Shown here piece by piece: positions 7,506 to 44,980 of a stretch of 64,000 bases of DNA. The position numbers and the translations under genes are program-made. Source of the DNA: Yuukianura sp. NJ FZ-2021 (Eukaryota); NCBI GenBank assembly GCA_046563655.1, contig CM102285.1:5208001-5272000 (forward strand), in the 5' to 3' direction. The notes under the pieces are model-generated. The model was not told where the DNA came from, did no database searches, and was given only the letters and a program-made list of their open reading frames with translations. Each line of letters starts with the position of its first letter. The first letter of the stretch is position 1.

Positions 7506-9759
7506 AGAATAATGATGAAAAACTTTATTTACATGATCATGACAACTGAAAAAAATATGAAATTTCGTGTCTTTGAAACTGAAATTATTTCAGTTGTACT
7601 CCAGATTGAAATTAATCAGTTTGCCTCAGGTTTTACCCGTGCTTCATGCCACACGTCACACTATAATCATGTCAAACAATCGTGCCCTTTTTCGTCATCG
7701 TCATCTATCTGTAGTAATTGGCCGAGTCATACCTCAAGTGCCTTGTCGGGTATTCCCCGAGATTTGACGATTTCTCCTGAATACTCGACAGATCCTGTGG
7801 GATTTGGAGATTTTCTGGGTTTCATACTACTGCGCAGGCACAGCGTCTTAGTCCATGTTTTGCATATAGAGCCTAAACTCAATTGATATAAGAGCATCTT
7901 CCCGGAGTGAAGAGGTGTGTGGGTTGCAGTCGCACTCGCTTCTAATTAATTTCTGCGCTGGCATTCTTTGTCTGTCAAGTTATGTGAGCATACCTGGTCT
8001 CAGATCCTTGAATTCGGTGTATTAGCTCCACCCCGAGCATGTTTTAAGTATTGATAAATAATATATAATATATAATATTCAACACCGCATTAAGATTCCC
8101 ATTCTTTGAGTGTTTTAATTCGATTTTAAGAATAGACAAACTGCGCAGAGTTTGGACTTCGACGATAATCTAATCTTTACACTTCGGATAATACATACAC
8201 AAATTGATCCTACTAAAACCAGATTTACTGGTGGAATGGAGTCCAGTGTTCACGCCCCAAGCAAACATATTGACAATTGGCTTTTCTTGCCATTTTCCGC
8301 GAATTTTTGAAATCCAAGAAAAATATGGTATGACGTTGAAGTGTTTTACTGGGACTACCAGTTCCAGTTCAGGTTTGTCCTGGAACTTCATAATACCTTT
8401 GACGCGGTAGGACTCAAAGTCGAAATTGTACGGTGCCCTGACAAAAATTGGTTTGTCTCATCATCAGTAATTACATTCAACTTCAAAGATCAACTTCAAG
8501 ACTGTGTCTGACTCCCGAAGTAGTTTCTATATTCCATATATTTTCTACTACCCGCGGACTCCCGCACTATTTTTTCCCTTCATATTTAAGATCCATACCC
8601 GGCTTGGAAAAAATTAAAAACTTATTAGTAAGGTGAATAGTTAGGTCTGAGTCTGCTGAAAATTAGCGTTAGGTTAGGCTAGGGTATACTTGCTGGGATA
8701 CGCATAATTCTCCGTAAAGCTAGGAAATAAACTTAATATAAACATAAGTTTTAAGAATACACCGCGAGGAATCCCTCGTTGGCAATTTGCTAAGGTAAGG
8801 AAAGAGCATAGGGGAGAGATAGCGTCTGCCCTTGGGCTATTTTTATTGTGTGTATTTTTTCACAAGTAAAAAGTGCAAGCGACAAAGTTATTGGGGCTAC
8901 AGTCTAAAACCCGAGGTAGCACCAGGGTCCCCACTTTTACCTAACTGGCCAGTTGGGGGCATACCTTCGTTATCCTACGTCATCAACAGCAACGTATATG
9001 TATTTTCTGAATCCGAAGGTCAAGTCCATTCCAGCAGTATGCTACGTGCATGGCGTCATCATACGATGTCAAGTTGACTTTTGACCCTTTGTACCCCTTG
9101 ACCTATCGATTCAAAGGCTCTGAAAATTTGCCCATATGATCCCAGTATTGACCCTAACAACTTGTAAAAATTTCATTCGAATACCACCGGGACAACTTTC
9201 TTATGGACTTTGGGCCATACCCTTGCTACCCAAATTAACCTGTAATTAAGTGTCAGTTTTTTCAGTAAATCAATAAAATCATTCGATAAATTGGACATTG
9301 ATCTTTAGAGAGAGTATCATTTTCTTTTAACTGAACTATCCAGTGATTAGAAGGGGTGTTCTAATGGCGGGTTTTAGTCCCTACCCTAACTCAACTCCAT
9401 TCAACAGGGTCAGTAGCAAAGTAACACTGCACATTCATTTCTAAATTGTAAATTTTGATTTATTTTTGGAAGCGGTTTAAATTATGATTATTTTGAGACA
9501 TGGATTTTTGGAAAGCTGACGCTGTTGCTAACCATCGTCCGAAACTATTAAGTGAATTCTAAATATCCTTACAGTGGAGGATTTATAGTCAATTTCTCAT
9601 GTTTACAGTGAGAACGTTTAATTTAAAATCTTTAACAATCAATTATATTTTAACATTATAAAAAAACTTAAGAAGTTTTGAAAAAAAATATTATAGCATG
9701 TTGTGAACTTTGGACACGTCAAACCTTTCACCGGAAGCTCCTACAAGCGTTTTAAAGTA

Positions 9760-11020
9760 ACTTTAGTCGCCCTAGCTGTACCGCTAGATAGCTACGCTTC
9801 GACATTAACTATACGCATGTCAAATTTGGCACATAGAAAGGAAGCTTTAGTAAGCCTTTTGAAGCATTTTAGTCGCCGCTAGATGTACCGCTAGATTGCT
9901 ATGCTTCGACATTAACTATACGCATGTCAAATTTGACACATAGAAAGGAAGCTGTAGTAACCCGGCTTTTTATTTTATGCCTAATTCATGTCTAATGAAG
10001 GCTCTCTCCTAAAACATGATCAAAACTAGACACAGCGAGTGTACATTAGCTCATCCCACTTGAGTTGTGTCTAAAAATCTCGACACAATTTGTGTCGTGT
10101 ACCTTTTGTAAGGGTTGACTAAGATGTTTTCAATTAGGCCCCACGCTTAATAATAAATTTGTCAATAAAATTGTCAATTTTAAGAGGAATTACATCTTTT
10201 GAAATTCTTAACACTTTTAATTAAACATGATGTGTTAAAATTAACAACATTCATTTTACTGACAAATGCTACGGGTAGTGAATTAACTATAAAAAGATCC
10301 TTAATAATGAAGATGTCTCCGTTAACCTCTACAACAAAATCGCAATGCTTTGGTTCACCTATTTTTTCCACAGTGTATTTGTTTCCGTTTACATAACATG
10401 ATCTATAACACAGTACTGTTTTGGCTATAAATCCTACACTTTGTAACGATTCTTTTAGGAGCGTTTCTTAAGCGTTTTTCTTCAATGATGCTGGAAATGA
10501 ACAAAAACGCAAAAGAAACAGAAATACTGCTCAATACTACTACTGATTGAACGATTTTAGAAAGGGACTCGCTACATTCCATAACATAATGCTACATATG
10601 TTATGAAATAGATGGAGTTTCACATCAGTTAACTAAAAACAGGTGTGTGGTGAAATGGATAGTGTGGTCAATTAGTAATAAAGTTACAAGGGAGTAGGCA
10701 GTGAGTTCGAATCTCATCTCAGATGAAGTGTTTTTTTCCCCTCTTTTTTCATGGAGTGTCTACTCCAGTAGACACAGAAAGGGATCAAGTTTGGGGGTAG
10801 AACTTTCGACATAACGCTCTACACAGGCTCTACCCAATTTCATTCACCGGGAAGCCTTTTGAAGCATTTTAGTCGCCACTAGATGTATCGCTATGTAGCT
10901 ACGCTTGCACATCAACTTTTGGCGTAAGTCAACTTTGAATTTTCAACACATAGTACTTAATGAAAGCTGTAAAAGGCCTTACGAACCATTTCAGTTGCCG
11001 CTAGCTATACCGTTAGATTC
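9760..11020. repeat. Degenerate ~100 bp repeat, two tandem copies plus dispersed partial copies
   Basis: TTTAGTCGCC..TAG(C/A)TGTACCGCTAGAT.GCTA.GCTTCGACATTAACTATACGCATGTCAAATTTG at ~9762 and ~9868; partial copies at ~10868 and ~10990. Confidence 0.7.
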
Positions 11021-11275
11021 TTTGGGAATTCGCTTTGTTTCCCAGAAGGGAATTAGAATCCTAAATTTAACCAAGCGAAAGTCCGAGTTGAGCACTCGAC
11101 TGGCATAGATGTGCGCTATCCAAGGTTCTAGCTTCAGATCTAAAACGACAGTAAGCAATGCAGTCCTCCGACACTCCCCACCACCGCCTCCGAGAAGTTA
11201 TCTTCCCCCTCCACAACCAGGAAAAAGTGGAGCGACATCACCCGAAATATCCGAAGAAGAAACAAAGACAATCGT

Positions 11276-17007: not shown

Positions 17008-17878
17008 TCTTAGTCAATACTGCCAACAGCCAAACAAGCATAGATGAAATGGTTGAATTGAGATTGCACTTCAACGGTGTACTCACAATTTTGGGATTCC
17101 ACATAATGAAGGGACTCAAGCCAAAAATGCTACTTGGGACTGATTGAACAACAAAAGACTTAAATAAACAGGAATTTACAAACATCGATGATGAAACACC
17201 AATTAATAATTGTCCCAAAAATGAGGAAAAGCCTCAACCAAATAAATTCAAACTGATAAAAACAGTACGGCTTCCAGCCAGAATGACCTCCAAAGTCGCT
17301 GTTAAGTCAGATAAAATTATTTCTGGTTCAACTATTATGAATCCCAACATGACACTTTATGAGACACAGGCCTTACTTCAACCTTATGTCTATTCAATTG
17401 TAAGGGATCATGAAACCGATTTATGGATTACAAATTTAAATGATTTTGAAGTGACCTTGAACAAAGGCACAACAATTGCATATGGCGAAATTTGTCCACC
17501 AGAGAAAAACATTTATGCGTTTACTGAAGATGGCGACACTATCGATTCGGGTGAACAAACTTTTGGAAATTTTGACCCAAAACTAGGAGACAATTTGTCC
17601 AAGGATGAGAAAAATGAATTGAGAAATTTGATTATTCAATTTCCTACGCTATTTGCGGAAGATGAGACCGAATTAGGGAAAACTAGCCTTGTTCGTCATC
17701 AAATTGACACGGGCACAAATCCTCCAATTAGGAATTATCCCCATCGAGTTTCCTATCCATAAAAAAGCAAAATTAACGAAAAAATGAATAAGCTTCTTGA
17801 AAGTGACATTATTGAAGAATCAATTTCTCCTTGGTCATCTCCAGTAATACTCGTTCCTAAAAAGGACGGAAGTTCAAG

Positions 17879-18050
17879 GGTTAGTAGGGAAAGGCGTTGT
17901 ACGCCACCGCCATCTTGGATGTGGGTGGTGTCATGCCAAGATGGCCTGGTTGGGGTGTTGGGTAAAATGGCGCAGCGGTGCTGGACAAAATGGAGGGGAC
18001 AGCCATCTTGGATGTTTTGTGATGGCGGGATGAGTGTTTGTCTTCGAAGG
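17879..18050 (+). repeat. Left terminal inverted repeat of the Polinton-like element
   Basis: Reverse complement of ~27385-27556 with about 7 mismatches counted by eye. Confidence 0.95.
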
Positions 18051-18479
18051 TCTTAAGGGATTGGTGGCCTGGTGGCTCGTGTTTCTGATGCTTTTGCTCA
18101 AGAGGTTTTGAGTGGTAGGGATTGTGGTAGAGAGGGGTTGTGTTGGTGTGGTGGATCAAGGTAGTGTAGTGCGAAGATGACGTTTTCCTATGGACTGTTT
18201 GATTGTATGGAGAGGGTGAGTTTTTCGGTTTTCATTTTTTATGGTGGGTAGGAGATTTGGGAGTTAAGTGGCTCAGCTGAGACTTGTTGCTTGTTCTCTC
18301 TAAGGATTTTAATCAGATTTACGACTGCAGTTTAGGTGTTTTCTGCTGACGTTAGGTCAAAATGTCAACTTGTAAGAAAGAGGATCTTGTGTCAAGTTTG
18401 ACGCTACAAGTTGGTTATGACGCATCAGTCGTTGTGTGTCACTTCTTAATTTTGGAGGTAGTTCGAAGAAGAAGTAGAA

Positions 18480-19157
18480 ATGGGTGAGTTTAATTTTCAT
18501 TGAGAAAAATATTACACGAAATTATTTTTCCGTTTATTATTTTAGATAATCGATTGAATATACTTTTTTTTTCAGTTTGCGATTTCAATCTAGAGTGCAT
18601 CGCTTGCGTGAGCAGTGGATGCTCATATTATGAATTCGTATTTAGTGACGAGTCACTGCGGAAGGTCTGTGCAGTCACAGGATCAGTGATTGGAGCAACT
18701 TTTGAAGTCGATCCTCCTGACGTCACCGCATGTCCGTCGGGCTCAACCACGGTTTCACCGCTTACCACTAGTTCGTCTTCATCTACTTCTGCGCCACCGA
18801 CGCCAACGACAGCTTACACCACTACTACTTTGGCTCCTCGCACGACGACTAAGTTACCGACAATTGTTCCGGCCACTCTTGATGGTGATTCTTGGAAATT
18901 TGGATTTGTTGTCACTTGTAAGCATTTTGATTTATACTTTTTTTCAAAAGATTCCAACAAAACTAAATATTTACTAAATTCGTTCTCTATTTGTAGTGAT
19001 CTTGTTCCTGGTTGCTGTCATTGCTTGCTTTGTTCTTTTGCGTCAATGGTGGATCCGACGCCGTGCGGTGGATGGGACCAGGCGTAGCCAGCTGCGCATG
19101 CGTGGCGAAGAGCAAATTCCATTGAGAATGTTGGCGCTCGACGAAAGTCATTTTTAA
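18480..19157 (+). CDS. Spliced single-pass membrane protein: Cys-rich (PSI/CD164-like) domain, Ser/Thr mucin stalk, TM helix, short tail
   Basis: ATGG then GTGAGT intron 18484-18575. Exon 18576-18917 (CDFNLECIACVSSGC..C..C plus Thr-rich stalk). Intron 18918-18996. Last exon is in frame and gives TM FGFVVTLILFLVAVIACFVLL, RQWWIRRR, ...DESHF*. The true 5' end and signal peptide are uncertain. Confidence 0.7.
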
Positions 19158-20140
19158 GCGTGTTCTTCCAATTCAAGTTACCACAGAAACAACAACAACA
19201 ACAAAAACGCGAGTATTTTTAGCAATTGAAGAGTTTTAGCGGTTATTTCAGAAATCAGCTCATAACTATATTTTGGCTCAATTTCAATATGAATTCAACA
19301 ACTCTTAGCTTTTCAACTATTTAGTTAGGTTTAGATTTATCAAATACGAGAGTTATTTTCAATTTAACTAAGAAATGTAATTTTCATTCCTAAAGTCAAC
19401 GTGAAAAATTGTAACCACTTTTACCTTTGTAAAAAAAATTTTTAAGAAAATCAGAAAATTATTTTACTCGTGCTCAGCCTTACGCTGTCGTGACTGCTGC
19501 TGCTTAGTAACCAAAGTTCCTTACAAAGATTTTGAGTTTAAAATAAACTAGTAAATCTCACAAAACAAATTGAATATTCTTGTTTATTTCATCGTATAAA
19601 ATTTCTGCATTAAACGAGTGAAAGGTTTCGAAGGTTGTATACAGAGTTGGAAGATACAAAAAGTTGCAAAATACCAGAAAATGATAGTAGAATTAGTATT
19701 TAGTATGAACTATTTAGATTTAGTACTAAAATTCTAGGCTGCTGAAACCTGGTTTTTAAAAGTGAAAAATACTTTGAAATTAAAGTTTCTTCTCTTCGCA
19801 TGTGACAGTTTTGTACAAAACTGTAAAATCTTGTTTTGTCTCTGCTGACAAATCAATCGGAGTAGAATCCTTGGCCGCGTAGGTGCATGCTGCTCGACCT
19901 TCTCTGATTATCTTGTCCATTTCGTCGGTACTTTTTCCAACAGTGTTCCCGCCTTTGGACGTATCAGTCGCTCAGGAAATTGCTAAAAAAATTAAAAAGT
20001 CAGCAAGAAAGACCGAAGCTCCATTGTACCCAACTGTTCAATCATGATATAAGCTAACTGCTTACTGCCTAAATCTTGCTTTCATTCCTTCGACATATTC
20101 TGAGGATCTCTAATTGAGATTTACTCAATCCTGTTTCATC

Positions 20141-20804
20141 ATGCCTTTTAGGATGGCCCAGGAGAAGAATACAAAACTTCCACTCCCTTCTGATTTCGCA
20201 CCTATCATGTGGTTAAATCAGTGGGATTTCAAATAAATCGTTGCAATGGACTGCGAATTTGTGCATACTCGGAAAGGGAAAGGCGCCTCCCGAGTCCCCT
20301 GCGTTAGTAGAGAGGTAGTAGTAGGTAGATATCGTTATCAGCTCACTCCTTCCAATCTACTCTGCTAAAATATATCACCCTAAGAATTCCTTCTTGGTAA
20401 ATGAGTCTACTCGTCAAGTAAATGAATTTGAAGCGGATAGCTTTGACAATCCAGACTACAAATCTTTAGAGACAGTACGCGAAGAGGTTAGACAGATACT
20501 CCAAGATAAAGTGGTCGTAGGCGTCGCATTGAAGGGGGACATGAATTCACTCCACCTTCAGCAAGACCAGTTCAGTCACGTCGAACTACACGACACTTTT
20601 TTTAAGCACCGACTGGACAACAAAGGAGTAATTATGCTGGCTAACAAAGGCAGACCGATTCCCGAACCAATCGCACTCGGGACAATGTACCAAATCCTTT
20701 TCCGAAGACCACTGTACACAAACGGGTCGATTCATTCCTCTTTAGAAGACGCTACGGCAACAATGGAGATTTTCAACCAACAGGTTCATATTCCGATACC
20801 GTAG
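20141..20804 (+). pseudogene. DEDDh 3'-5' exonuclease (REXO4/REX4/ISG20-like), disrupted
   Basis: ExoI IVAMDCEFV (~20237-20263, just after an in-frame TAA), ExoII-like KVVVGVALKGD, ExoIII HSSLEDATATMEIF. Frameshift near 20300-20330. Confidence 0.75.
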
Positions 20805-20946
20805 GTTCCAGATAATCCATCCTCCAAATTGTTCACTGCATGGTTAATTCAAACCAAAATCGGCCTAACTGCACCGGCAATTCATTCTATCCTTAAATGA
20901 GAACTTTGTTGACCTAGTACAGGTTAACTTTTCTCTTTATTTCAGG

Positions 20947-22065
20947 ATGCAGAACAACTTGTACCGCTCAAATTTGGCAGCAACGGAGGGCAGAGAATTG
21001 TCCTACAAATGCTGGCAACGCGAGGTCAAGTGGCAAGGTCACCAACTTACTCCAGCACTTAACTTCGACTCAATACCGGAGTCGGAGAAACAGCGTGCCT
21101 ATCAGGTCTACCTCGAATCGGTCCGCCTTAGAACCCGCGTTAACGCCATGTTGGCCAGCATGCAGCCTAACTTTGTCTACGGAGCTACGGTGGAACACAA
21201 ACTGGAGGGAGAAGAAATCCTTAACATAAGTGGTCCACACTACAACCACATCACCAACAACAAAATCGAACACACGAAGAACTACAAGGACGAACCAAGG
21301 GTCCGCGCACCACTAAACCCGGAACGCAAACTCAGCCCAATTCCGCAATACCACAGCCGCCATAACGAAGACAATGACACGGATCATTATGATGGTTACC
21401 ACAAGCGATACCGCTCTCCTGGGAGCGGAAGCGGTTCAAATCGGCCGTCTCCGCCCCGTCAAGATCGTGATCACCGATCAAATCATCGAACAACTGAACA
21501 TACTCAACACCGACGGCACAACTCCAACGACCGACGCAACGATAACAGACGGCCTCAATACTCGAGCCACGAAAGAGATTATTCCGGTACTCCAACAGAG
21601 TATCGGAAGAATCACACTTCAGGATCTGCAGAACGGGAAACAAACAGACACCAAGACTACCGGAAGAACCGATTTGAAACCTACAGTTGCTCAACTGCAG
21701 ATAAAAAAACCGTTCCGCGGAATCAACACCCAGTTCCCACTCCATCTTCCATCTATGACAAACCAAAAACGTACTTTGGATCCCACTGTCAGGCCCCTCA
21801 TAGTGAGTCACACTCTTACAGTAGAGGCGATGGCCAAATCGGCCATTCGTCCAGTAACTACGAGCCCGTGTGGGAACTCAGAAGACAAACTACCACGCCT
21901 CCAAAAACATGGACTAACCCGAAACCTTCAACGGAAGTTCGTCCGAGGGCCAGAGCCTCCAGCCCGAAGAGACGTCAAACCTCCCCCACAACCACTTCAC
22001 CTAGCAAAACGGCGTCATTCTCCAAAAACAGTTATGAAGACCCCGAACTAGGGGTCCTCACGTAA
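20947..22065 (+). CDS. Hypothetical low-complexity R/S/H/T-rich protein
   Basis: 372 aa open frame directly after a polypyrimidine-CAG acceptor; no recognisable domain. Confidence 0.4.
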   Translation: MQNNLYRSNLAATEGRELSYKCWQREVKWQGHQLTPALNFDSIPESEKQRAYQVYLESVRLRTRVNAMLASMQPNFVYGATVEHKLEGEEILNISGPHYNHITNNKIEHTKNYKDEPRVRAPLNPERKLSPIPQYHSRHNEDNDTDHYDGYHKRYRSPGSGSGSNRPSPPRQDRDHRSNHRTTEHTQHRRHNSNDRRNDNRRPQYSSHERDYSGTPTEYRKNHTSGSAERETNRHQDYRKNRFETYSCSTADKKTVPRNQHPVPTPSSIYDKPKTYFGSHCQAPHSESHSYSRGDGQIGHSSSNYEPVWELRRQTTTPPKTWTNPKPSTEVRPRARASSPKRRQTSPTTTSPSKTASFSKNSYEDPELGVLT

Positions 22066-22411
22066 CAGCCCTCGTCCGACAGATACAAAAAGGTATGGTG
22101 GATACGACCGAGAATCTTTCCGGAATATACATCAGCGAGACAACGCTTACTTTAGCGACGTCCACCATACCCATCCTACGACAACCACTTCCTCATCCAG
22201 TCGTCACACCGATGAACTGAACCAACCCAGTTCCAATCACACACCAAAACATTATAGAGACGTCGTACCAAGGAACACAAAACGCGACAAGACTCCACAA
22301 CCTTACGACGATGGTAACTCAAACCGATTACCATCCAAAACTTCAACAAGGACGATCAGTCAACGACACACGACTCCGCCCAATCGGCGACAGTCAGCTC
22401 CACGGGATCCC

Positions 22412-23122
22412 TTGTACAACTTTGCGGGATTAATTCCTAACGAAACTAAATCTCCACCGACCTCCCCAGCAATTCCAGTCGAGACGACAAGCATACAGCC
22501 CACACAAACTCAGATACGTCTCAACCAAGCCACGCAACTACATGCAACAGGACAGGAGAATCCTACCCTGACACCATCACAGCTCACCTCGTCTACACTG
22601 ATCGACGAATTATACGCAAAGATCCAGAGCCTCGAACGTAAATTTGAGGACCAGAACCGCCAACTCCAACAACAGCCAAAACCATTTCCGTTACCCGTCG
22701 TACATGACTTCTACTCAAAGGAACCCAAGAAACAGTTGGTCCTTAAATTGACTCGACTTACAGCTCAGGAGTGTTCTAATACCTCCGCTTCCACTTCTCC
22801 AACCGGGAGCCAAAAGTCCCAGAAGTCGTTATCCAACTTTAAAGTCCCTCTCCTCTCCAAACAAAAAAGACTCCGGCTTTACGACGCTCCAGGGAACCAT
22901 CGCCATCTCCAAAACGAAATTCGACACCAAATTCCTCAAAGAAACAAAAGACTGAAGCGATCCAGAAACCAAATCGGACAAGCTCGTATAACCGGCCCTC
23001 CTCCAATCGCTCCACTCATCACTCACGCGAGACCTCCAAATCGGATCGAGTGGCCGATCGGGCCACCTAGAACCCACGGTGGGGCACCTTCGGGTATGAC
23101 TACCGAGAGTTGGAGGTGTTAG
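22412..23122 (+). CDS. Hypothetical Pro/Thr/Gln-rich protein with a short coiled coil
   Basis: 236 aa ORF with a LYAKIQSLERKFEDQNRQLQQQ coiled coil; may be a frameshifted continuation of the upstream ORF. Confidence 0.35.
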   Translation: MYNFAGLIPNETKSPPTSPAIPVETTSIQPTQTQIRLNQATQLHATGQENPTLTPSQLTSSTLIDELYAKIQSLERKFEDQNRQLQQQPKPFPLPVVHDFYSKEPKKQLVLKLTRLTAQECSNTSASTSPTGSQKSQKSLSNFKVPLLSKQKRLRLYDAPGNHRHLQNEIRHQIPQRNKRLKRSRNQIGQARITGPPPIAPLITHARPPNRIEWPIGPPRTHGGAPSGMTTESWRC

Positions 23123-23263
23123 TAGCCTGACACTGTTCCTCGGGTAGAGATCCTCTCACGCGGACCTCTACTCGAGTACTACTCCTCTCACTCCTCTCAT
23201 CCTCCTCCTCTCTACCTCTATCATAGGGAGGACTCCTACCCCCATAGGGGGCCTCACACCTTC

Positions 23264-26200
23264 ATGCCGGTGACACATGAAATTTTTGTTCCAAAAGTAA
23301 TTTTAAACTCTAGTAATTTTATAGTTTCTAGCTTTAACTTGTATTTGGCAAATAATTCCAAATGGGAAATTGAGTCTTTGAATCAAATTCAGCTATTTAT
23401 TGCTCATTACAATCCAATCAGGGGGCGGGGCTATATTCCAACCTCTCCCGATCTGCACAAAAGGCGCGGGCTCGTTTCAATTAAAACTGACAAAAATTGT
23501 TTTAAATTGAGTTTACTATGCTCAATTTTTGGAGACGAAATTTTGAGAATGTTAGGGGAAAAGGCAAAGTCGCGGGAAAAGCGTTTTCTTGAAGACCCCA
23601 GGAGTTATGAAAGCCATTTCGATAAAATCGATTTGGGATTTTTAAAAGATCCCGCTGCAGTTTCTATGCATGACATTGATGTAGTAGAAGAAAAATTGAC
23701 AGATCTCAGTTTAAACGTTTACGGCCTCGCAGGAAATGACGTTTTTTTGATGATGGCCACAAGTCAGGTTAAAAAAAATCAAGTAAATTTACTCCTCGTC
23801 AGAGACGAAAAAAATCAGAGCAATTATCATTACATATTGATTCGTGACTTTGGAGGATTTCTGGGTAAAGATCGCGGCTACGGCTCACAATTCTGTGCAA
23901 AGTGCCAGAAGCGATTAGACCCAAGATACAAATCTGGACTTTTACATTCGTGTGGGGAGGGGTCTACACGGAAACGGCAATCAAAGAATCACGTCGCCAA
24001 ATTCAAACGATTTGATTCTCTGCTAAAGTTTCCATACTGTATGTACTATCGATTTTTTTTTATGTAAAAATCAAATTTGGACCAGAAAATCTCACAAATT
24101 CAGCAGAATCTGACACTGAACAGGTTCCATTTGCCTATAGTTTCTTTTGTGTGGCTCAGGACGAATTTATTGATAGGTTTTTCTACACCAGCGTAGATTG
24201 CGTCGATCATTTTATAAAAGCAATTTTAAAGTTGGCAGAAGAAAAAACAAGGCTGATTAGGAATAAAAATGTTTTTGTTCCGCCGAGTCGAGAAATTTTA
24301 ACTAAATTTCAAAATGCGACACATTGCGAACTGTGTCAAGACAATTGTTTGGACAAGAGAGACGAACATTTAAAACTTATAATCATGACCACTTTACCGG
24401 CGAAGCAATCCAGATCGCTTGTGTCACGTGTAATTTGCAAAATCGTCGCAGTCACTTTCTCCCAGTTGTAACCATGGGACCACGACACGAGTTTAGTTTG
24501 TTACTTAGAAAAACAACTTGCCCACCAGAGTCAGTTTTTCCTATATGCAAAAAGAATAGGCAGATTATAGGGGTTCAACTGAAACAAAACCACTGGAATG
24601 GAAACTACCGTCACCATTACGTGAGTTAATCTAAAAAACCACGAGATAATCTAATGGACTTGTCTCATTTCATAACGGACATGCCGCTTTCGGAAATTGC
24701 ACAAGATCTGACACACGGTGGCCTAGGGTTATGTTGTTTCGAAAAAGTTTTTGGCGAATTAGCAAATCCTCAGGAATTACTAATTGACGACAGCCTGTTT
24801 CCAGTTTTTGATTCCATTTAGCATTTTCTTGGGCTAGTTGACAAAATTTTCCTTAATATTTCTAACAAAATTGTTTAAAATATCCACCAGAAGCTACAGT
24901 TAGAGACATCATACGACACAAGTGTAACGCTGAGGCTAGTCTCATAGCAGATGCATTCGAGAACCTAAGAAATATTTGTTTCAAAGACTACCAGCTAGAT
25001 TTGTCGTCATTCTGGAGTCTTTCGTCTTTTGGTTTGCAAGCTGCTCTGCTTTTTAGAAACACAGAAATTGAAAGTATCGCTGATTCGGAGATTGGTGAAA
25101 TGGTTACCGATGGAGTTTTTGGCGGTTATTCAAACTACAAAGTTGCGCAGTGTTGCCAACTCGCGATCAAATTCGAATTTTGATCCTAGAATAGCGGAGA
25201 AGGAAATTTTCTGTGGCAACATCCGAATGAGTTACAGCAAGTCGCTGCTTGGTAATCTCCCATACAAAGATATTACGATTTTGTCGGAGACGGAGCTGGA
25301 AACGTTCAATTTCAGCAGAACTGACGATTCGTACGGATATCTATTTCGCGTAGACATTTCATACGTATCTGAGGAATGGAAACGCTACATTTCAGACCTG
25401 CGTTTTCCACAGGAACGTCGGAAAATTTGCATAACGGATCTTTCTGATACACAGAAGCAATGGTTGCAGGATAAGGATAAAGTACTTTTAGATCAGACTA
25501 GAGTGTTAAACACACTTTATGACAAAGAATGTGGCGTATACTATTTGCCGTTTCTGAATTGGATGTTGTCACATGGTGTAAACGTCACACGCGGGTATCC
25601 GTTTTAGAGAATTCGCCATTTTCAAAGATTTTGCAACGTTTAACGTTGAGGCTAGACATAGGGCTAAGTGTGACCTTGACATGCAAATGAGGAAATCTTT
25701 GAATAATAATTTAATTGGAAAAATGCTTGCTCTAGATTCAGACTACGCAGAGTCAAAGTTTATTTTCACCTCTATTGAAGCGAAAGAGCATCTTGCGAAA
25801 GACACTTTTACCGATTTTAATATTATTCACGAGAATTGTTCATTGCTAAAATTTAGAAAGGAACGAGCATCGACCTTTGACCTCAGGTTGACTGCTTTGG
25901 TAGCATTATCTAATGCTCGGCAAAATTTGTATAACATTGTTTACGATGGATTCAAAGCAGAGTTCGGCGACGATTTCAATCATCTCTACAGTAATACGGA
26001 TTCTCTAATTGCACAGATTAATGTCCCCAGGGCACGGTATATTTCTGGGTTGAAAAATATTGAAACTTTTTTTGATTTTTCCAACCTACCCCTAGATCAT
26101 GAATTACATAATGACAAAAACAAAAACATGCCAGGGAAAATGAGGCTGGAAGCTGATCATCTCCTTTCCTTCTACTCGACAGGGTTTAATCAGTATTCAT

Positions 26201-26544
26201 TGCTCGTAGACACAAAATACGAAGACAAGGAAATCTCAAAAGCAGGGGGAATTAAAAAATCAGAAGCAAAGTTTCTTAGGCATTCCCATTATAAAAACAT
26301 CGTCGAGGAAGGGAAACAATTGGAAAAAATCAAAATCAAAACAATCAAGTTGGTAGATGATAAGATTGTTTCGATTTCCAGCGAGCGCTGTAGTCTTGGC
26401 GGGGTGAGTATGAGAAACTTTTTTTCTAATGAACTCAGTTTCTCATTTGGAGATCCTAGAATGTTTAGAAAAATAAATTTTCCGAAGTCGTTAAAAGGTT
26501 ATTCATGTACTTCTTTAAAAAAAACTCATTTTGTTGTCAAATAA
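23264..26544 (+). pseudogene. Protein-primed family B DNA polymerase (Polinton/adintovirus type), frameshifted
   Basis: YNPIRGRGYIP..LVSIK.DKNCF, HYILIRD, FCAKC, exonuclease I region KFPYCMYYD, Zn/endonuclease VII-like HCELC..DHFTGE..ACVTCNLQ, motif A region NIRMSYS..LP, GYLFRVDI, motif B RKSLNNNLIGK, motif C YSNTDS, KNMPGKM and KAGGI. Several stops and frameshifts. Confidence 0.88.
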
Positions 26545-27384
26545 ATACTTTCTTTTATTGTTTACTTCATTTTCTCCGTTCGTTATTTTCAAAAACACCT
26601 TAATTGTAGAACTTTCGAAATTTAACCGTTAATCCGCGAGTCAAGTTCTGGAATGAAAAAAATCTTCCTTATTTTCTTCAGATTTTTAATAAACCGACTC
26701 AATTCGTTAGTGGCATTTGAGCTAAGAAGGTTACCATGGATCCAGCGAAAACGATTGGGTTTGCCACTGCCATGCCAGTCGTCGAGCCAGTGGCTTTTAA
26801 ACTTTACCGATTTGCATGTAATATTATTGTGTTAGATTTCTATTTGTATTTTTTTTAAATATTTATTCTTTAATGTATGATTCAGATTTGAAACGCTACG
26901 GAGCTTCCCATGCAAAGGACGCCATATCATAAAGCACGAGATGGTCGTGCTGGAGACAAACCGAAAAAAGACACGAAGAGACTGAGCCGGCAACCAACCC
27001 GCCAATCCATGAGCTTTTGTTTACTGATTTTGCAAAATACCTTTTTTTCACCATTTCACTAACAAACATTTAACACTATTGTTAACACTATTAAAACTGT
27101 CACATCCAAAGAAAAGAAACTTTAATTTAAATTTTAATTTAAAGGATTTTTTTTCGTTCTCAAAAGTAAGAGTGATGAATCAAAATAAAAAATTTTTGTT
27201 TTCAATCTCTTTAACCGCAATATCCGAATTTTCTTAAATTATCGAAAACATTTTTTTTCCTGAGTGGCGTTTTATATTTTCTGTTTCTAAACATTCGTTT
27301 TCCATACGTAGCATGGACCACTCCATCTCCGTACAACGCCCTCCATAAAAGAGAAGAGAACGGAAGTCATCCATCTCGCTAAAC

Positions 27385-27556
27385 CCTTCGAAGACAAACA
27401 GTCACCCCGCCATCACAAAACATCCAAGATGGCTGACCCCTCCATCTTGTCCAGCACCGCTCCGCCATTTTACCCAACACCCCAACCAGGCCATCTTGGC
27501 ATGACACCACCCACATCCAAGATGGCGGTGGCGTACAACGCCTTTCCCAACTAACT
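27385..27556 (-). repeat. Right terminal inverted repeat of the Polinton-like element
   Basis: Inverted copy of 17879-18050 ending ...CAACTAACT, followed by the TSD TTCAAG. Confidence 0.95.
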
Positions 27557-30500
27557 TTCAAGACTGGTGATTGACTATAGAAAATTAAATGCAATTACCA
27601 AGAAAAACTCTTATCCATTGCCTAGAATGGACGATGCATTGGATAGACTGTCAGGGGCCAAGTACTTTACTGTACTAGATTTGCTATCTGGGTGCTACCA
27701 AATAGAGTTAGACCCAAAAGACAAAAAAAACAGCATTTATAACTCCTGACGGCCTTTACCAATTTAAGAGACTTCCTATGGAACTCTGTAATGCTCCATC
27801 TAGTTTCCAATATTTAATGGATTTGGTTTTACTAAACTTGAAATGGAATATTGTACTCGTTTACTTGGATGACCTTGTTGTTTGGGGAAGGACTTTTAAG
27901 GAGCACAATTCTAGACTCTTCACTGTTCTAAACCAACTCAAAGAAGCGGGCTTAACCCTAAAAATCAGCAGGTGCATTTTTGGAACCAATAAACCTAATT
28001 ATCTGGGCCATATTATTTCAGAAAATGGAATTCAAGTAGATTCGGATAAAACAATTGCAATGGATAATTTTCCAATTCCAAAAAATCAAACCGTCATAAA
28101 ATCATTTTTAGGAATGTGCGGTTACTATAGACGCTTCATCCAAAATTTTGGTAGAATTGCGATCCCACTCACTCTTTTGACAAAAAAAAATCAAAATATT
28201 GACTGGGGTGAAAAACAAAATGAAGCATTTCAAAAATTAAAATCATGTTTGGTCAAAAGCCCAATTTTGTCATACCCAATGGACAATGTCCCAACGGAAG
28301 TGCACTGTGATAGCAGTGGGTATGGGATCGGGGCAACCCTGGTCCAAATCCAAAATGGAAAACCCTGCGTCATAGCTTACGCTAGCCGAAGTATGACAGA
28401 AGCGGAACGAAAATATTCGGGATCCGAACAAGAATGTCTAGCAGTAGTCTTTTCTGTTAAAAAGTTTAGGCCATACATTTATGGAACCAAGTACACAGTG
28501 TACACTGATCACTATGCTCTAAAATGGTTGTTTTCCATTAAAGATGTAAATAGTAGGCTAGCTAGATGGTCAATTACACTGCAAAATCAGGACATGACTA
28601 TTGTACATAGACCAGGGAAAACTGCAAATGACGCTGACCCTTGTCACGTTACGCAGTTGACCCACCAGAGAGCATGGACAGCTCTGAAGTTCTTGTTTTG
28701 GATGGCGTTCCTGACTTGTTTACAATAAACGAATTAAAAGTCAAACAGAGATCCGACCACTTTCTAAAATCGATTATTCTTTACATTAAGTCCTTGGGAA
28801 ATGAAGAATATAATATACCTCAACCTAATGTTAAACAATTACAGGACTATAGTTTACAAAATGGAATTTTATTATTTCCGAATTTTGCACCTTCAGGCAA
28901 CCAATGGAAAATCGTGGTTCCAAAATGCTTAAGAAAAGCCGTTTTAGATTCTCTGCATTGTGGAAATTTAGCAGGCCATTTTGGAATTACTAAAACTTGG
29001 GAATTAGTACGTAGTAGTTGTAAGTAGATTTCATTGGAAAGGAATGTACCGTGATACTAGAAAATATATCCTAGGGTGTGAAGTTTGTCAGAAATTTAGG
29101 AAAAGAATTGGTCCTGAGTTTATTGAAAAGTTTATGGTTTGATGGAAAGTTTTCCTGAGGTGACAAAACCCTTCGAAAGAGTGGGAATTGATTGGATTGG
29201 ACCTTTTGTAAAGTCAGAAAATGGCAACAAATATGCGATTGTTCTCACTGACCACTTCACCAGATACTCAGAAACTGTTGCCGCACCAAGTGCGACAGCA
29301 GAAGAGGTGGTAAAAGACATTAAGTCCAAGATTATTTACACTCACTCTCTTCCAAAGGAATTTGTGGTTGATAGAGGAAGACACTTTACTGCAAATTTAG
29401 TAACAGCTGCAGCAGAAGAATTTAGCTTTAAGCTGAAATTCACAGCTATCCCACAGCAATCCCACAAGCCAATGGAATGGATAAGATGTAACAAAACTGT
29501 CAAGAAAATTATTGCCAAAACGGTTGATGAAAACCACAAAAACTGGGAATTATGCTTAGAGCAAGCGACATTTGCTTACAACATTAAAAAGCATTCATCA
29601 ACTGACTTTTCCCCATTTTATTTGGTTTTTGGTCGAGAAGCAGTTTTACGAATAGATTTGCAGCTTCCTAATTTTAATTCTGACCAAGAACTAAATTTTG
29701 AGGAATTAGAGCATAATAGGCAACAAGCTCAATTAAAATCTAAGGAAAGTCATGAAAAGTCAAAATCTCGAGTTAATAAGAACCGACATGAACATGATTT
29801 TCAAGTGGGCGAACTTGTTTTAAGGTCAAGACCTATTAAAAAGAAAGGCCTCTCAAAAGCGTTCATTGCGCAAAAAGATGGACCTTACAAAATTTTACAA
29901 CAAACAGGTCCAGTCAATTATGAAATTAAAAAGCTAAATAGTAAGTCAAAAAAAGTAATTGTGCATGTCAGAGATTTAGAACATTTTAATTCAGAATTTA
30001 TGCCCAGCTCTGACAGTGAAAGTAGCGAAAGTGAGTTCACTGATCATCAGAATACAAAAGCGAAATCTCTAGACACACAGAGCACAAAGATGCAGCAAAA
30101 GTTCCCCTTTCATCGCCAGTGGGAAGGAAGAAGGAGCAGTCAGTGAGTCACAGCAACTCCACTCGCTCCACTCATTCTCATGCACGATCAGCTGCAACTT
30201 CTGATTTTAAGTCACCAAAAAGTTACAAAAGTAAACATTCAAATCATAACAAAAGTAATTCCAGTAGGGAAATTAGCGCACATTCGTCCAGGTCATTGCC
30301 TACACGAGTAAGTCACGTAGACTCAGACAGTGACAGTGCAGGTGATGGGGAAGTTACTGACCTCGACCCTATAAATAGGACTGAAAACGAAGGAGACGAC
30401 TTTGTCTCAATTTCAACGTCCTCCGAGGAAGAAATCTCTGCTCCACCATCTCCTCCACCAAGGGTCACTGCCCCTAAAAGAAGATCAACTCGTACAAGGA

Positions 30501-37041: not shown

Positions 37042-40000
37042 TGGTGCCGAAAGACGGTTTTCGCCGACAAGACCACGAACGACAACCATCAAAGGAAGTG
37101 ACATATGAATGGCCGTCAGATGCCTCGCAGAAGACGAGAAGGCCAAATTTCCAAAGGCTGATGAGGTGTTAAAATCAAATTTTTGTGTGTACGACTTAAT
37201 GGAAGGAGCCATCAGCGTACAGGAAGCCAATCAACTCGTGACGGAGCTGGAAGGACTATTACGTCGTGGTTGCCTTGAAATTACCCAGTGGGACTCGAAT
37301 TCAAAAGAGCTTCTAAAGTCCATTCCTAAGGCAAAACGAGGTAAAAATGACGTAATTACATGTGATGCTGATTTCGACAGGGTTTTAGGCGTGGGACAGT
37401 GGAGGTGACTATTTTCATTTCAAAGGTTACACTCCAAAACCAGTGGGCGTGGTCACAAAGAGGACGGTCTTGTCGACTATGTCCAAGGTTTTTGACTCAC
37501 TTGGTTTTTTGTCTCCCCTAACTGTCAAAATTAAAGTCTATTTTCAGGTTTTCTGGTCACCAGTTCAAAGAAAAGAAAATGGAATTCTCTCATGGGACGA
37601 TGAGATTCCACCTGATCTGGCTGGACAATGGCATGACTATGTCAAAGGTGTCCATGACATAAAAAGTCTAACTATTCCAAGGTGTTTGTTTTCAGGTTTT
37701 CCAGAAATTGTCGAAATTCATGGATTTAGTGACGCCTCGGAACTCGCCTACTGTGCGGTGGTGTACATTTGGTCAATTCAGAGGAATGGTCGGGCCACTA
37801 CAAATATAATTGCTTCCAAAACAAAAGTGGCACCGATGAAGCAAAACAGCCTTCCGAGACTCGAACTTTCCGGTGCTCTACTTTTGTCCAAACTAATTCC
37901 GAAAGTGCTGGAAGCAACACGACTCAAATGTCCAATCGTCACATGGACCGACAGTGGAACGGTTCTGAAGTGGCTACGAAACACGAGTCGTAAGTTTGTG
38001 ACATTCGTTGCTAATCGTGTTTCTGAGATACAGGAAGTAATTCCTGTCAGTTCCTGGAATTTTGTGCCCGGAACTGACAATCCAGCCGATTTAGGGACTC
38101 GTGGGATCACTGCTGAGGAACTCGTAAGTTCAAAATTGTGGCCCAGACTGGCTAAAAAATGCGAATTTGCCAGTGTTTGAGTCAGAGGGGAAAGTAAGTG
38201 ACTCCTCTAAACTCCTTGAAATGAGAAAGGTAAAAGTGAATCTGACTCTAATTGATCGTGAAATGATTAATCGTTTTTCCAATTACGTGAGGCTTAACCG
38301 GGCGGTAGCGTACGCATTGCGATTTGTTTCATATTGCAGGAATTTGAAACAGGAAGAGAGGCTTATTGGTGATCTATCAGTTGAAGAAACTGACCGAGCC
38401 CTTCTTATGTGCATAAAAGTAGCACAAAATGACGACTACAGTGATGACATAATGGCCCTGAAGAAGAACAATCGAGTGGACAAGGGAAGTGCATTGGAAT
38501 CACTACATCCGTTGCTGGACAGTCATGGAGTTATGCGTGTTGGAGGTAGACTCCAAAAGTCAGACCTACCAAGTGACCAGTGCCATCCCATCATTTTATC
38601 AGGTCAAAATCATTTCACCAAAATCATGGTAAGGTATTTTCATCATTTTTACCTCCATGCCAACTACCAATTGTTGTGGGCAAACTTGTCCAAACGATTT
38701 TGGATCGTGAGAGCGCGAGTCACAATTCGACAAGTGGTCAGAGACTGCCTCAAATGCAAAAGACTCAGAGCGAAAGCCAGTGAACAACTGATGGGAGCAC
38801 TGCCAAAGGCGAGAGTAACTCCTTCTCTGCCATTTACGAACGGTGGAGTCGACTACGCAGGCCCCATTAAGCTGCAGGAAAAGTATGGGCGTGGCAAACG
38901 ACAATTTGACGGTTACTTTTGCGTATTTGTCTGATTTGCGACACGGGCAATCCATTTGGAACCTGTGACTGACTTGACCACTGCAGCGTTTTTAGCGACT
39001 TTAAAAAGATTCATTTCTAGAAGAGGACTTGTGTAAGTCATTTATTCTGACAATGGGAAAAACTTCATTGGCGCAGCTAATGAAATTGCAGAATGGCAAA
39101 AGGTAATTCATGATACTAAAGTCGTTGATTTTTTGTGCGTTTCAGGAATCCAGTGGAAGTTCATACCTCCTGATGCTCCTCACATGTGTGGATTATGGGA
39201 GTCAGGAGTAAAGTCGGCGAAGTACCACCTGAAGAGAGTGATTGGATGCACGACATTGACACTGGAAGAATTCCATACGCTCCTGGCAATGGTGAAAGCA
39301 GTGCTCAACTCACGGCCGATTTGTGCAAAATCTCGTGACCCGGATGACGTTGAGGCATTAACTATTGGACATTTCCTCCTTGGGAAGCCGTTACTCGCCA
39401 TTCCAGAGCCAAGTTTGGCTGAAATCAAAGAAAACCGACTGTCGAGGTGGCAACGAGTCCAACAGATGTCGGAGCATTCCTGGAATCGCTGGAAGAAAGA
39501 ATACTTAAATCTACTCCAGCAGCGTAACAAATGGCGAAACGAATCCGAAAATGTCAAAACTGGCGATCTCGTCCTCATCAAAGACGACGACACTCCACCA
39601 TTGAAGTGGAAACTCGCTAGAGTCACCAAAACATTTCCAGGAGAAGACAACTTGATTCGATCTGTGGAAGTAAACTTCAAAACGACGGAATTGGACAAGA
39701 AAGGTCAACTGAAACTCAAAGATCATGCTACTAGATCCAGAGTAGCGTAAGTCTAGGGAAATGTGTAAATACTGTAAATTTAAAATTCAAAATCATTTAA
39801 GTGTTCATTTCAAAATATTCGTCGATTTATTCTTTAAAATTCTGGGTTAAAGTTAGCTTTAAGATCATAAGTGTTAAGTATCTCTTTCAAGCTATCAAAA
39901 CATAGGTGTTAAGATAGGTTTAGTGTTAACTTCCTATCTCTTTCCAAAAACCATTTGTAAAAACATCTTCCGTTCGAGTAGAGTAAGTACTGAACGTAAG

Positions 40001-41449: not shown

Positions 41450-44400
41450 CAAATGAATTACCCCGAATGAATTTCCCCGAACCCAATTACAACAAAAGTT
41501 ACAGCGGACATGGATGTAATGTTTTGGTGCCTGACGGATACTGTACATCCCTCCAATGAGTTCCCTAACCAGTGACTCCACAATTGATACCCAACCGGAC
41601 ACTGCAAACGTTCTTCAGTTGCCGAATGCAAATCAGCCAAACACAAGAAGTTCAAACGAAAAGCCAGTATTTCAGTCGACGACAATTCTACTTCCATTGT
41701 CCCTAAGAAACAAAAAATGGCAAACGAAACTGTACTGGCAGCCATTAATCAGCTTCGAATTGATCTACAAAAGGACAACCACAAACTATCCCAGCAAATT
41801 ACCGACCTCTCATCTCAAATTACATCACTTCAAAGCCGAGTTTCTATTGTCGAATCAAGACAAGATGCGGACACTGTAAAAATATCCATACACGATAAGG
41901 AAATTGAACAAATCCAGATTTAACGCGGCAAATCAAACCTCATCCTCCATAAACTGAACAAGCTGACGAATGAAACCGAATCTCTACTTAACAATTACAT
42001 TGAAAATCTCTGCTCTGAATTCACTGGACTAAATAACACCAACTTCGTCTCTGCCGCCTGGTAACTTCAATAGCACTCGAATTCCTCCCGTAAAAATGGT
42101 TTTCAGATCCAGGAAAGAAAGAAACGCTGTTTGGGGAAAACGATTTGACTTGCCGACCTCACCACCTGGTGACAGACTTGTACTTAGAGACGACGTACCT
42201 AAAGCTACAGGAATCAACAGAGCACACAAACGCACGACAAATCCTACAATGTTGCCTCAACCTAGAGTTAGTAATTTTCGTCCAAACCAGAAATGACTAG
42301 ATCATCATGACGCGGCTCCATAAGCTTCCTGTAAAACATTGAAAATAACTGGACTTAATGTTTGTGGGTTCAATTCAAAATGTGAACTAATAAAAATACT
42401 AATTAACGATTACGATCTCGACGTTTTGTGTATCTCTGAAACGCATCTCAAGATCACTAACCCACCAAGATCAATTGAAGGATTTGAATTCTTGCGACTT
42501 GACACAGAATGGCAAGCAAAAGGAGGTGTAGGCATCCTCATTAAATCTACGCTGAAGACAAAAGTGAAAGTTATCACTTTGCCCCGTAACTGTAACTTTG
42601 AAGTGATTACCGCATCGATTCAACTCAACTACAACAAACGTTTTCTCGTCTCCAGTGTTTACCGCATTCCTAATTACTCTTCTGAAATAATCAACACTGA
42701 TTTAGACTCGTTAAACAAACTTTGTAATGGACTGAGTCTCATCAGGAAAAACTGCTTTGTCTTTGGAGACTTCAACTTGAACCATAAGTACATTCCTCCA
42801 AAACGTCGGTTAAAAAGACAACATCCATATTTCATCAACTAGTTGAGCAACCAACCAGGGTCAATACTGGACCTAATATGCACTAACTGAAAAACAACAG
42901 TAGTTGATCATTGTGACATCGATCCCCATATTTCTAACCATGCGATGACTCTTCTGAACTCAATTTGACGAAGCCAAATATTCCACGAGTGCAGTTTACG
43001 TATAAAGACTACAAAAATTTTGACATCGAGGAATTTGGCCTCAAGAATGTGTACACAACATTCCAAACCAGTGATATGGATTTAAATTTTTAGTTCCACG
43101 ATTTTATGCAGAACATCATAGCAAATTTTGAGGACACAGCAAAAACCAAAACTGTTTCATTTGTACCAAAAGTTGTGCCACTTACACTTTCACAAGAAAC
43201 CAAACATCTGATTTTATTAATGGACCAGCTTGGAAGTGTAAAAACTAAAGATCAAGTGCACAAACTCGAATTACAACAAATCAAAAAAAAGTGAAGTCGG
43301 AAGTATTACGTGATAGAAAAGACACATTAAACCTCGACATTGAAAAACTTGGCCCTTTTAATGCAATTTCAAAAGTCTGGTCAAAAACTAAATCAGAATT
43401 CAATAATCTTCCTATGAATGCAGATGAAATCAATGAATATTTTACTTCAATCACCACACCTCAAACAGTATCGACACTTTACCCAATCAAACCTACTACT
43501 ATGGTCACTCCTCCTGAAACTTTTGATCTCAAGGCAGTGACAGTTCATCAATTAAACAAGATTTGGAAAAATGTGAAAAACAAACAATCCAGAAGTTGTG
43601 ATCAATTCTGCATTTCAAACTGGATTATTTCCCACAGTGAAAGTGCACCTAACATAAAAACGCAAATACTAAATCTTGTAAACAAAAGCTTTGAAACAAA
43701 AGTGTTTTCAACATTGTTTCAACATTCCAAAATTATTCCACTGCCAAAAGTGAAAGCTCCAAAACACCCATTGGACGCTAGACCAATCTCCCTCCAACCA
43801 GTTCTATATAAACTCTTAGAAAAAGTTGCTCACAATCAACTGAGTTTTTGAACAGCCACTCTATACTGAATAAGGCCCAATTTGGGTTTCGACAACACCA
43901 CTCAACTACACTGGCTCAACTGGCACTAATGGACACAATATACTTTCACCTTAATCAAGCCGAAATCTGTCTGGTGATTTCCTTGGATCTCAAAAAGGCT
44001 TTTGACACGGTCAACAAAGGTTTCCTCATTGAGAAAATGCAGTGGTACAATATTTCAACTAAATGGTTTGAATCCTATCTTAGCAGTAGGTCACATCATG
44101 TAGACCTTCACAACTCAAGTTCAACTTCCCGTCCAACCATTTTGCCAGTTCCTCAAGCCTCCGTACTTGTTCCTCTACTGTTTGCCATTATGATAAATGA
44201 CCTTCTGGAAATCATCACTGATGCGTCTGCAATTCTATTTGCAGACGACAACAACATTGTGCTCGCAAGTCATCCAGACAATGTGAATTCCTTAATTCAG
44301 AGAGCAGAATTATTAATTGGAAAAATTAATAACTGGATGGAAGATAATCATATGTCACTGAATATACAAAAAAACCAAGGTGCTTTTGGTTGGGAAGAAG

Positions 44401-44980
44401 AAAATAATTGCCAAAATTGGCTTACTTCAACTACAAGTGGGAAACACTAGTGTGACAAGTGTAACCTCATTCAAATCACTCGGTCTAACCATTGATAGTT
44501 CCTTAACATGGTGTGAACATCACATCTACATAATCAGGAAATGCAATTCAATTCTGTGGTCACTCTACCCAATTCAGAATCTTTCTTTCCAAAAAACACA
44601 GGAAGTTAATGGTGACTTCATACATCTCTCCAACATTGCGATACATGCTGATCATTTGGGCAAACTGCAAAACCTCCCAATTTAAGTGCACTAACAAGAT
44701 TTTTCGGAAGAGAATAAGATTCATCTATCAATTCAGAATATATTTTGATATATATATATATATATATACACTATATATTTTGATCAACAGTAGGTCGGCA
44801 TACTAGACGAACAGTGCCATCCAAAAATCCGAAACAGTTGTTGTACGGTGAACCTTTTCTGGAAACTGCATCAGCAAACGTTTTGACCAAATCCATTGTC
44901 AACCAAGCATGTTGTAAACCACGAGTTCGATGGAAATGTTGATTTTTTTAAAAAAGTAATCATAAGCTTGTTTCAAATAA
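41450..44980 (+). mobile_element. Near full-length degenerate CR1/L2-clade LINE
   Basis: Coiled-coil ORF1 (~41718-42296). APE endonuclease NVCG, CISETHL, GGVGI, VYRIP, FGDFN. RT PLPK, RPISL, QFGFR, LDLKKAFDTV, FADD. Many stops and frameshifts; AATAAA at ~44976. Confidence 0.9.

Follow-up and report, generated by a model that had tools for sequence, protein, structure and literature searches.

The 64,000-nucleotide (nt) stretch of Yuukianura sp. NJ FZ-2021 analysed here (GenBank assembly GCA_046563655.1, contig CM102285.1, positions 5,208,001 to 5,272,000 of the forward strand; hereafter the window, with position 1 as its first letter) contains a small intron-bearing gene for a mucin-like membrane protein. 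The gene lies on the forward strand within a Polinton/Maverick-like DNA element that occupies positions 17879-27556 (9,678 bp), at a distance of 600 nt from its left end. We consider it likely that the gene belongs, as a spliced accessory gene, to a lineage of Polinton/Maverick-like elements that have terminal inverted repeats (TIRs) and a polymerase and lack an integrase. This assessment, drawn from sequence comparison, covers the gene itself, the type of protein it encodes and its membership of the element.

Once spliced, the frame runs without interruption for 168 codons from the ATG at 18480; its stop codon occupies 19155-19157. The features of the gene, all on the + strand, are as follows.

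18425..18430, +: TCAGTC, an initiator-like motif and candidate start of transcription, 55 nt 5' of the ATG
18480..18483, +: exon 1, coding portion (ATG and one further base); the earliest ATG in frame behind a stop that lies 6 codons upstream, with an A at -3
18484..18575, +: intron 1, 92 nt, phase 1, GTGAGT..TTTTCAG, 21% G+C
18576..18917, +: exon 2, 342 nt; encodes the six-Cys domain (at about 18578-18733), the Thr/Ser/Pro stalk and the first part of the transmembrane (TM) helix
18918..18996, +: intron 2, 79 nt, phase 1, GTAAGC..TTTGTAG, interrupting the TM helix
18997..19157, +: exon 3; remainder of the TM helix, polybasic stop-transfer, tail of 38 amino acids (aa), stop codon at 19155-19157
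19542..19547, +: first AATAAA past the stop, candidate poly(A) signal, 385 nt 3' of the stop

An earlier sequence-only reading of the window had proposed this model, in which introns of 92 and 79 nt join an uninterrupted frame, and its coordinates were found as it gave them. The exons have a G+C content of 49-52%, and the introns one of 21-23%. From stop to stop, the frame over exon 2 runs for 197 codons in DNA of 38% G+C; this length, together with a homologue of 39% identity that has the same exon-intron plan (described below), places the frame beyond chance. A 54-nt degenerate signature of the conserved block of the gene matched once in the window and not at all in 100 shuffles, and no second copy of the membrane gene was found within the 64 kb. 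The two short phase-1 introns, the first of them right behind the ATG and its one additional base, would be cut out by the host spliceosome.

The predicted protein has 168 aa. Its first Cys stands two residues past the start, all six Cys lie within residues 1-54, and the 50 residues behind the last Cys, which form the stalk, are 68% Ser/Thr/Pro. The ectodomain comes to about 108-110 residues, half of which is stalk. The most hydrophobic 19-residue window (residues 112-130) has a mean Kyte-Doolittle hydropathy of 3.31 and is immediately followed by a run of Arg. In the 38-aa tail, a basic juxtamembrane stretch is found together with the motif EE-x-[IL]-P-L, and the protein ends in E-S-H-F. The succession of a Cys-rich domain, a Thr/Ser stalk, a TM helix, a basic stop-transfer and a short tail that had been described from the letters alone was thus confirmed. 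One point had been overlooked: the gene model lacks a signal peptide. Residues 1-30 contain no hydrophobic stretch, with a top 9-residue hydropathy mean of 1.78 in the window protein and of 0.47 in its homologue.

The Polinton-like element and its polymerase

The placement of the gene inside a Polinton-like element, likewise part of the sequence-only reading, was substantiated by mapping the TIRs and a 6-bp target-site duplication. The features that define the element, and its polymerase, are listed here.

17873..17878, no strand: target-site duplication TTCAAG, left copy, 6 bp
17879..18055, +: left TIR; aligned arms 17880-18055 / 27380-27555
23126..26544, +: polymerase, identified by tblastn with the relative P0004 and by 43% identity to the polymerase of metagenome contig L001
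27380..27556, -: right TIR; aligned arm 27380-27555
27557..27562, no strand: target-site duplication TTCAAG, right copy, 6 bp

The aligned TIR arms are 176 nt long with 95% complementarity; blastn gives 171 nt at 96.5%. The flanks of the element join into one continuous gypsy reverse-transcriptase (RT) frame, which is followed by RNase H and integrase at 27712-30146. TTCAAG on both sides and the continuous RT frame indicate that the element inserted cleanly and duplicated 6 bp of its target, in the manner of Polintons/Mavericks, and it shows the combination of TIRs and a 5-6-bp target duplication that is a feature of membership of this group. All its genes are on the + strand, in the order left TIR, membrane gene, exonuclease remnant, low-complexity region, polymerase, right TIR.

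Among frames of at least 120 aa between the TIRs, none matched the rve integrase, shorter or intron-split genes not having been searched exhaustively; the rve match at 29127-30146 is part of the gypsy element that flanks the insertion. Similarly, no Pfam match to major or minor jelly-roll capsid proteins, a packaging ATPase or a protease was found within 17879-27556. The only frames in the element that are otherwise unaccounted for are short ones, at 19780-19971 (-) and 26626-27237.

For the polymerase, a word-based search for longer proteins returned a single match among 2618 candidates, the intact 1203-aa protein P0004, with 30% identity to the window polymerase (E 1.6e-37). Aligned to the window with tblastn, residues 113-1200 of P0004 fall into five pieces, in frames 2, 3, 2, 3, and 1, which amounts to four frame changes. 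Those near 25130 and 25588 are taken as true frameshifts, since the pieces overlap or abut there and leave no room for an intron. The other two lie within unaligned gaps of ~320 nt, where a short intron is possible. The sequence-only reading had described the polymerase gene as carrying many lesions, and this was confirmed in part: two frameshifts are clear, and one in-frame stop codon stands at 23123-23125. With its broken polymerase, the copy of the element in the window, whose TIRs are 95-96% identical, is dead.

Searches of Pfam, PHROGs, and PDB sequences gave no match for the window polymerase, and the same searches did not recognise P0004 either. In the ESM Atlas, 21 of the 30 matches to P0004 carry DNA_pol_B_2 and Endonuclease_7. 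The best three Atlas clusters (score 0.98) are dominated by arthropods and hold proteins of 1150-1290 aa, with DNA_pol_B_2 in 20-27% and Endonuclease_7 in 25-34% of their members. A weak Endonuclease_7 match is present in the window at 24306-24626, which is the expected place, and the polymerase motifs K..N..G and TDS are visible by eye. An AlphaFold2 model of the C-terminus of the polymerase was poor (mean predicted local distance difference test score, pLDDT, 34.6). We took the gene to encode a divergent polymerase, putatively protein-primed and of the Polinton type. This polymerase clade is tied to Polinton polymerases by language-model features only. Standard Polinton screens would miss such elements.

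A homologous gene beside a related polymerase

To find relatives of the membrane protein, the protein encoded by exon 2 (P0001) was used as a phmmer query against 1.84 billion representative proteins at E<=0.001. Two matches were obtained, and the sole true relative was P0002 (E 9.3e-10), a 152-aa protein that forms a single-member cluster and comes from one 2399-nt metagenome contig, L001. In a BLASTP alignment, P0002 and P0001 are identical at 43 of 111 positions (39%, E 1e-16). The other match, P0003 (3504 aa, NCBI), was rejected as spurious: a short Thr/Ser-rich repeat in it was matched seven times, and its only Pfam match is DUF6265. None of the 31 candidates from a word-based protein search with exon 2 was significant, and a profile search found P0002 alone among 2427 candidates. 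A profile search of PDB sequences gave two chance matches, both with E>1, and the ESM Atlas gave no usable match with exon 2. Of 124 pattern matches among metagenome contigs, one was a true relative, again L001. No related locus was found in genome contigs, and none was found in viral contigs by the membrane profile, the polymerase, the polymerase alignment, or the 54-nt signature, which detects both the window and L001. On the strength of these searches, the protein is an unclassified family that has, at present, two members.

P0002 as deposited is a mis-prediction, which starts at an ATG in intron 1 and reads through intron 2. The gene on L001 has the plan seen in the window: an ATG plus one base followed by GTAAGT, a 92-nt phase-1 intron, an exon 2 of 342 nt, a 74-nt phase-1 intron in the TM helix, and exon 3. 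At both loci, the ATG is the first in frame past an in-frame stop and has an A at -3. Both also carry TCA[GT]T[CT], which we take to be an initiator consensus, at -55 in the window and at -58 in L001, with a leader free of ATG. This comparison supports the exon model of the sequence-only reading, including its first exon with only 4 coding nt.

The proteins share all six Cys without exception, and a CAVTGSV..VDPPD block is near-identical between them. The tail of the L001 protein likewise has the basic run and EE..PL, and its last four residues are E-T-S-I. Its stalk region (L001 1707-1784) contains a 39-nt tandem duplication with copies that are 79% identical, suggesting that repeats are gained as the stalk evolves, which is typical of mucin regions.

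As the synonymous divergence (dS) between the two genes is saturated and could not be computed, we compared identities by codon position, which are 0.53, 0.58, and 0.28 for positions 1, 2, and 3, respectively. The nonsynonymous divergence (dN) is 0.65 overall and 0.54 within the Cys domain; the C-terminus of the polymerase has a dN of 0.56. Together, these values indicate that the membrane gene and the polymerase have diverged by similar amounts and under purifying selection. By this measure, selection has maintained the family through a long divergence.

The polymerase of L001 is represented by its last 335 codons (positions 3-1007), which are uninterrupted and 43% identical to the window polymerase. 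The membrane gene follows 435 nt 3' of it on the same strand. The linkage of the two genes in two elements, with proteins that are similarly diverged, points to a lineage-specific accessory gene rather than to a one-off capture; a one-off capture from the host finds no support in this comparison. A viral-type or element-borne surface glycoprotein, one of the two options that had been left open by the sequence-only reading, is therefore the favoured one.

Predicted topology, origin, and possible role of the protein

Both homologues display the sequence features of a type III signal-anchor protein, namely, no cleavable signal, one TM helix, and a positively charged C-terminal side. Each has a single strong TM helix (hydropathy 3.31 in the window protein and 3.27 in the L001 protein), with acidic residues before it and four to six Arg/Lys after it. 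Given these flanks, a reverse signal-anchor is the most likely arrangement, and a topology with the N-terminus outside and the C-terminus inside is accordingly predicted as the most likely one. In this arrangement, a product that has no cleavable signal peptide would be inserted by its single TM helix acting as a reverse signal-anchor. This would leave the six-Cys domain and the O-glycosylatable Thr/Ser/Pro stalk on the extracellular or luminal side, with the 38-aa tail facing the cytosol. The protein would be displayed on the membranes of the secretory pathway or on the surface of cells that express the element. The tail ends in E-[ST]-x-hydrophobic (ESHF, ETSI), which fits the pattern of class I PDZ ligands and suggests, as a lead drawn from n=2 sequences, that the tail might couple the protein to cortical scaffolds of the host. 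As for its biological role, the protein might serve the cell-to-cell or host-to-host spread of the element, or the exclusion of competitors, rather than the copying of DNA. We propose this role tentatively and hold it to be doubtful.

Several observations weigh against the picture of a conserved type III accessory protein. The N-terminal domain, with its disulfides and ~110 residues, is rather large to be translocated unaided by a signal peptide. The order of the genes differs between the loci, as the window gene lies 5' of the polymerase, beside the left TIR, and the L001 gene lies 3' of the polymerase. This difference is not explicable by flipping the element, and we rejected a head-to-tail or circular junction as its source, there being no palindrome between the polymerase and the membrane gene of L001. 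The two genes thus appear linked, but not in a fixed arrangement. The AlphaFold model of the exon-2 protein (mean pLDDT 39) is too poor to give the fold of the Cys domain, and the conservation of the PDZ-like end and of the EE..PL motif is that between two sequences. Finally, the sequence-only reading had rightly cautioned that the intactness of the window copy may reflect its short length. At the lesion rate of the polymerase (from 2 to some 5 disruptions over 3.2 kb), a coding sequence of 507 nt escapes lesions with a probability of roughly 0.45-0.73, and the intact frame in the window therefore says nothing on selection there. It is the comparison with L001 that speaks for selection.

These points leave room for other explanations. 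The protein could be of type I, with a cleavable signal peptide encoded by an unrecognised 5' exon, in which case the ATG at 18480 would not be the true start. An ectodomain of ~110 residues with six Cys and a mucin stalk normally enters the endoplasmic reticulum behind a signal peptide, and possible sources of one can be pointed out in both sequences: an upstream mini open reading frame (mini-ORF) on L001 with an ATG at 1138 and a hydrophobic run of 12 codons, and weakly hydrophobic mini-ORFs in the window at 18177 and 18362. These mini-ORFs are not homologous between the loci, however, and the upstream regions share no common coding signal (best tblastx E 0.32). In addition, the ATG+1, GTRAGT start with its 92-nt intron is laid out identically at both loci, with both ATGs the first past an in-frame stop and with an A at -3. 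We regard an unrecognised 5' exon as conceivable but unlikely. That the frame is non-functional, having survived by chance in a decaying element, would agree with the dead element, its broken polymerase and the sizeable chance of escape calculated above. For the family, this is already contradicted by the homologue, which keeps the frame, introns, Cys, TM helix, and tail at a synonymous divergence that is saturated, and the single signature match in the window against none in the shuffles is likewise at odds with it. We give chance survival hardly any credence.

The remaining possibility is that of a host gene for a CD164-like sialomucin, carried as passive cargo and of no use to the element. 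CD164 is a type I protein with a cleavable signal peptide and a C-terminal Tyr-based lysosomal sorting motif, YHTL. The protein described here resembles CD164/endolyn in being small and single-pass, with a Cys-rich module, a Thr/Ser-rich stalk for O-glycosylation, and a short cytosolic tail, in an endolyn-like order. A sub-threshold match to the Pfam family MGC-24 (PF05283) covers residues 1-109 of P0001 (15.1 bits, E 0.029), and Mavericks are known to carry host cargo, as described in one preprint (10.1101/2022.07.12.499685). Several lines of evidence oppose this explanation. The score remains below the gathering cut-off of 28.5 bits, so membership of the family was rejected, and no MGC-24 match was obtained for P0002, for exon 2 of L001, or for either Cys domain alone. 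As the match is lost in the homologue and in the isolated Cys domain, we put it down to composition as the most likely cause. Unlike CD164, the window protein has no signal peptide, carries its Cys domain at the extreme N-terminus and has one mucin region only; neither tail contains a Tyr, and hence neither has a Tyr-based sorting motif. No cellular relative was found among the 1.84 billion representatives or by the profile search, and purifying selection and linkage to a polymerase were kept across a divergence that saturates synonymous sites. We consider host cargo very unlikely.

The kinship with CD164/PSI-type mucins and the capture of a host gene, both suggested by the sequence-only reading, were accordingly not upheld. 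In the case of PSI, the domain of plexins, semaphorins, and integrins, the resemblance lies in the first four Cys, which by eye follow C-x5-C-x2-C-x4-C-x-aromatic. The PSI pattern comprises eight Cys. The window protein has six, none of them after the aromatic residue, and no match to PSI (PF01437) is listed by Pfam at E<=5 or E<=10, so this membership was rejected as well.

In layout, the nearest cellular analogue of the putative type III protein is glycophorin C, a mucin-like red-cell protein of type III that has no signal peptide, a basic juxtamembrane stretch that binds scaffolds, and a C-terminal PDZ ligand. This likeness is architectural only. Among viruses, the adenovirus death protein (ADP, E3-11.6K) is comparable; it is a glycosylated protein. 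ADP is a small type III protein with a luminal N-terminus, a cytosolic C-terminus and no cleaved signal, and adenovirus belongs to the same broad lineage as Polintons (PMC7449217). Unlike the window protein, ADP has no six-Cys domain, and its role is cell lysis for the release of virions, for which nothing in the present data speaks; no sequence similarity between the two is expected.

A membrane glycoprotein gene in an animal Maverick/Polinton has a precedent in MFUS-1, the gB-like fusogen of nematode Mavericks, which has 866 aa, a signal peptide and the fold of a class III fusogen (Widen et al., 10.1101/2022.07.12.499685), and which is as such a precedent for a membrane phase. The window protein differs from it in having 168 aa and no signal peptide, in falling below the size of the known fusogen classes, and in showing no sequence similarity to MFUS-1. 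With an ectodomain of about 108 residues, half of it stalk, and no signal peptide, we rejected the window protein as a viral fusogen of class I, II, or III.

Mavericks/Polintons are now viewed as virus-like vectors of horizontal gene transfer. In the Polinton/Maverick literature searched, no small mucin-like membrane protein is described, and the sole membrane protein is the nematode gB-like fusogen. The protein described here is a small, unannotated and putatively glycosylated membrane protein from an intron-bearing gene, and it accompanies a very divergent polymerase as a conserved partner in pared-down elements without integrase or capsid genes. If it were active in transmission or exclusion, this would explain the persistence of such minimal elements and show a membrane-linked step in elements of arthropods. 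Standard annotation misses genes of this kind, as illustrated by the single relative in public protein sets, which had been mis-predicted through both introns. It is also conceivable, though quite unlikely, that arthropod (springtail-type) Polinton-like replicons which lost their capsid and integrase genes keep a surface glycoprotein of their own that marks or remodels the membrane of the cell carrying them, allowing their DNA to leave or enter cells in a membrane-bound form or in the particles of helper Mavericks that bear the glycoprotein. If true, this would constitute a second, independent membrane phase of Mavericks besides the nematode gB-like fusogen. It would also answer a question left for investigation in a preprint on nematode Polintons, namely, whether envelopment is exclusive to those elements.

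Other features of the element and the window

Two further features lie between the membrane gene and the polymerase.

20236..20804, +: remnant of a DEDD-type 3'-5' exonuclease (ISG20/REX-type); Pfam RNase_T, E 0.006, 17.6 bits, cut-off 24
20869..23122, +: two overlapping low-complexity frames, rich in Arg/Ser/Thr/Pro/His/Asn, 46-47% G+C

In the exonuclease remnant, an upstream D-x-E is seen by eye in one frame, and the rest lies in another frame; possibly, this is another cargo gene that has decayed. The low-complexity region of ~2.2 kb has a strong skew of C over G and of A over T and matches no Pfam family. Its second frame is the frame of the polymerase, from which it is separated by one stop codon (23123-23125), and may form a disordered N-terminal extension of the polymerase. 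Also within the element, well away from both of its ends, 19774-19839 and 27058-27131 show an inverted similarity over 66-74 nt (74% identity, with a 39-nt core at 90%). This similarity does not line up with the TIRs and might represent a subterminal repeat or a common regulatory element.

The window consists mostly of nested transposons. The gypsy-type long terminal repeat element into which the Polinton-like element is inserted occupies 17148-17878 and 27563-30146 (+), with Pfam matches to RT, RNase H, and integrase and at least one in-frame stop in the split RT. A BEL/Pao element lies at 37389-39750 (+; Peptidase_A17, Integrase_H2C2, DUF5641), and a long interspersed nuclear element at 42324-44450 (+; Exo_endo_phos, RVT_1). 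At 46112-46645 (+), a frame of 177 codons ends in a strong TM segment and has a Pfam match to baculovirus Orf78 (ac78; E 3.6e-5, 24.4 bits, cut-off 29.4), which is probably driven by that segment. Finally, a 107-nt tandem pair with 80% identity and two related 66-nt copies ~1 kb away are located at 9733-9946 and 10852-11039.

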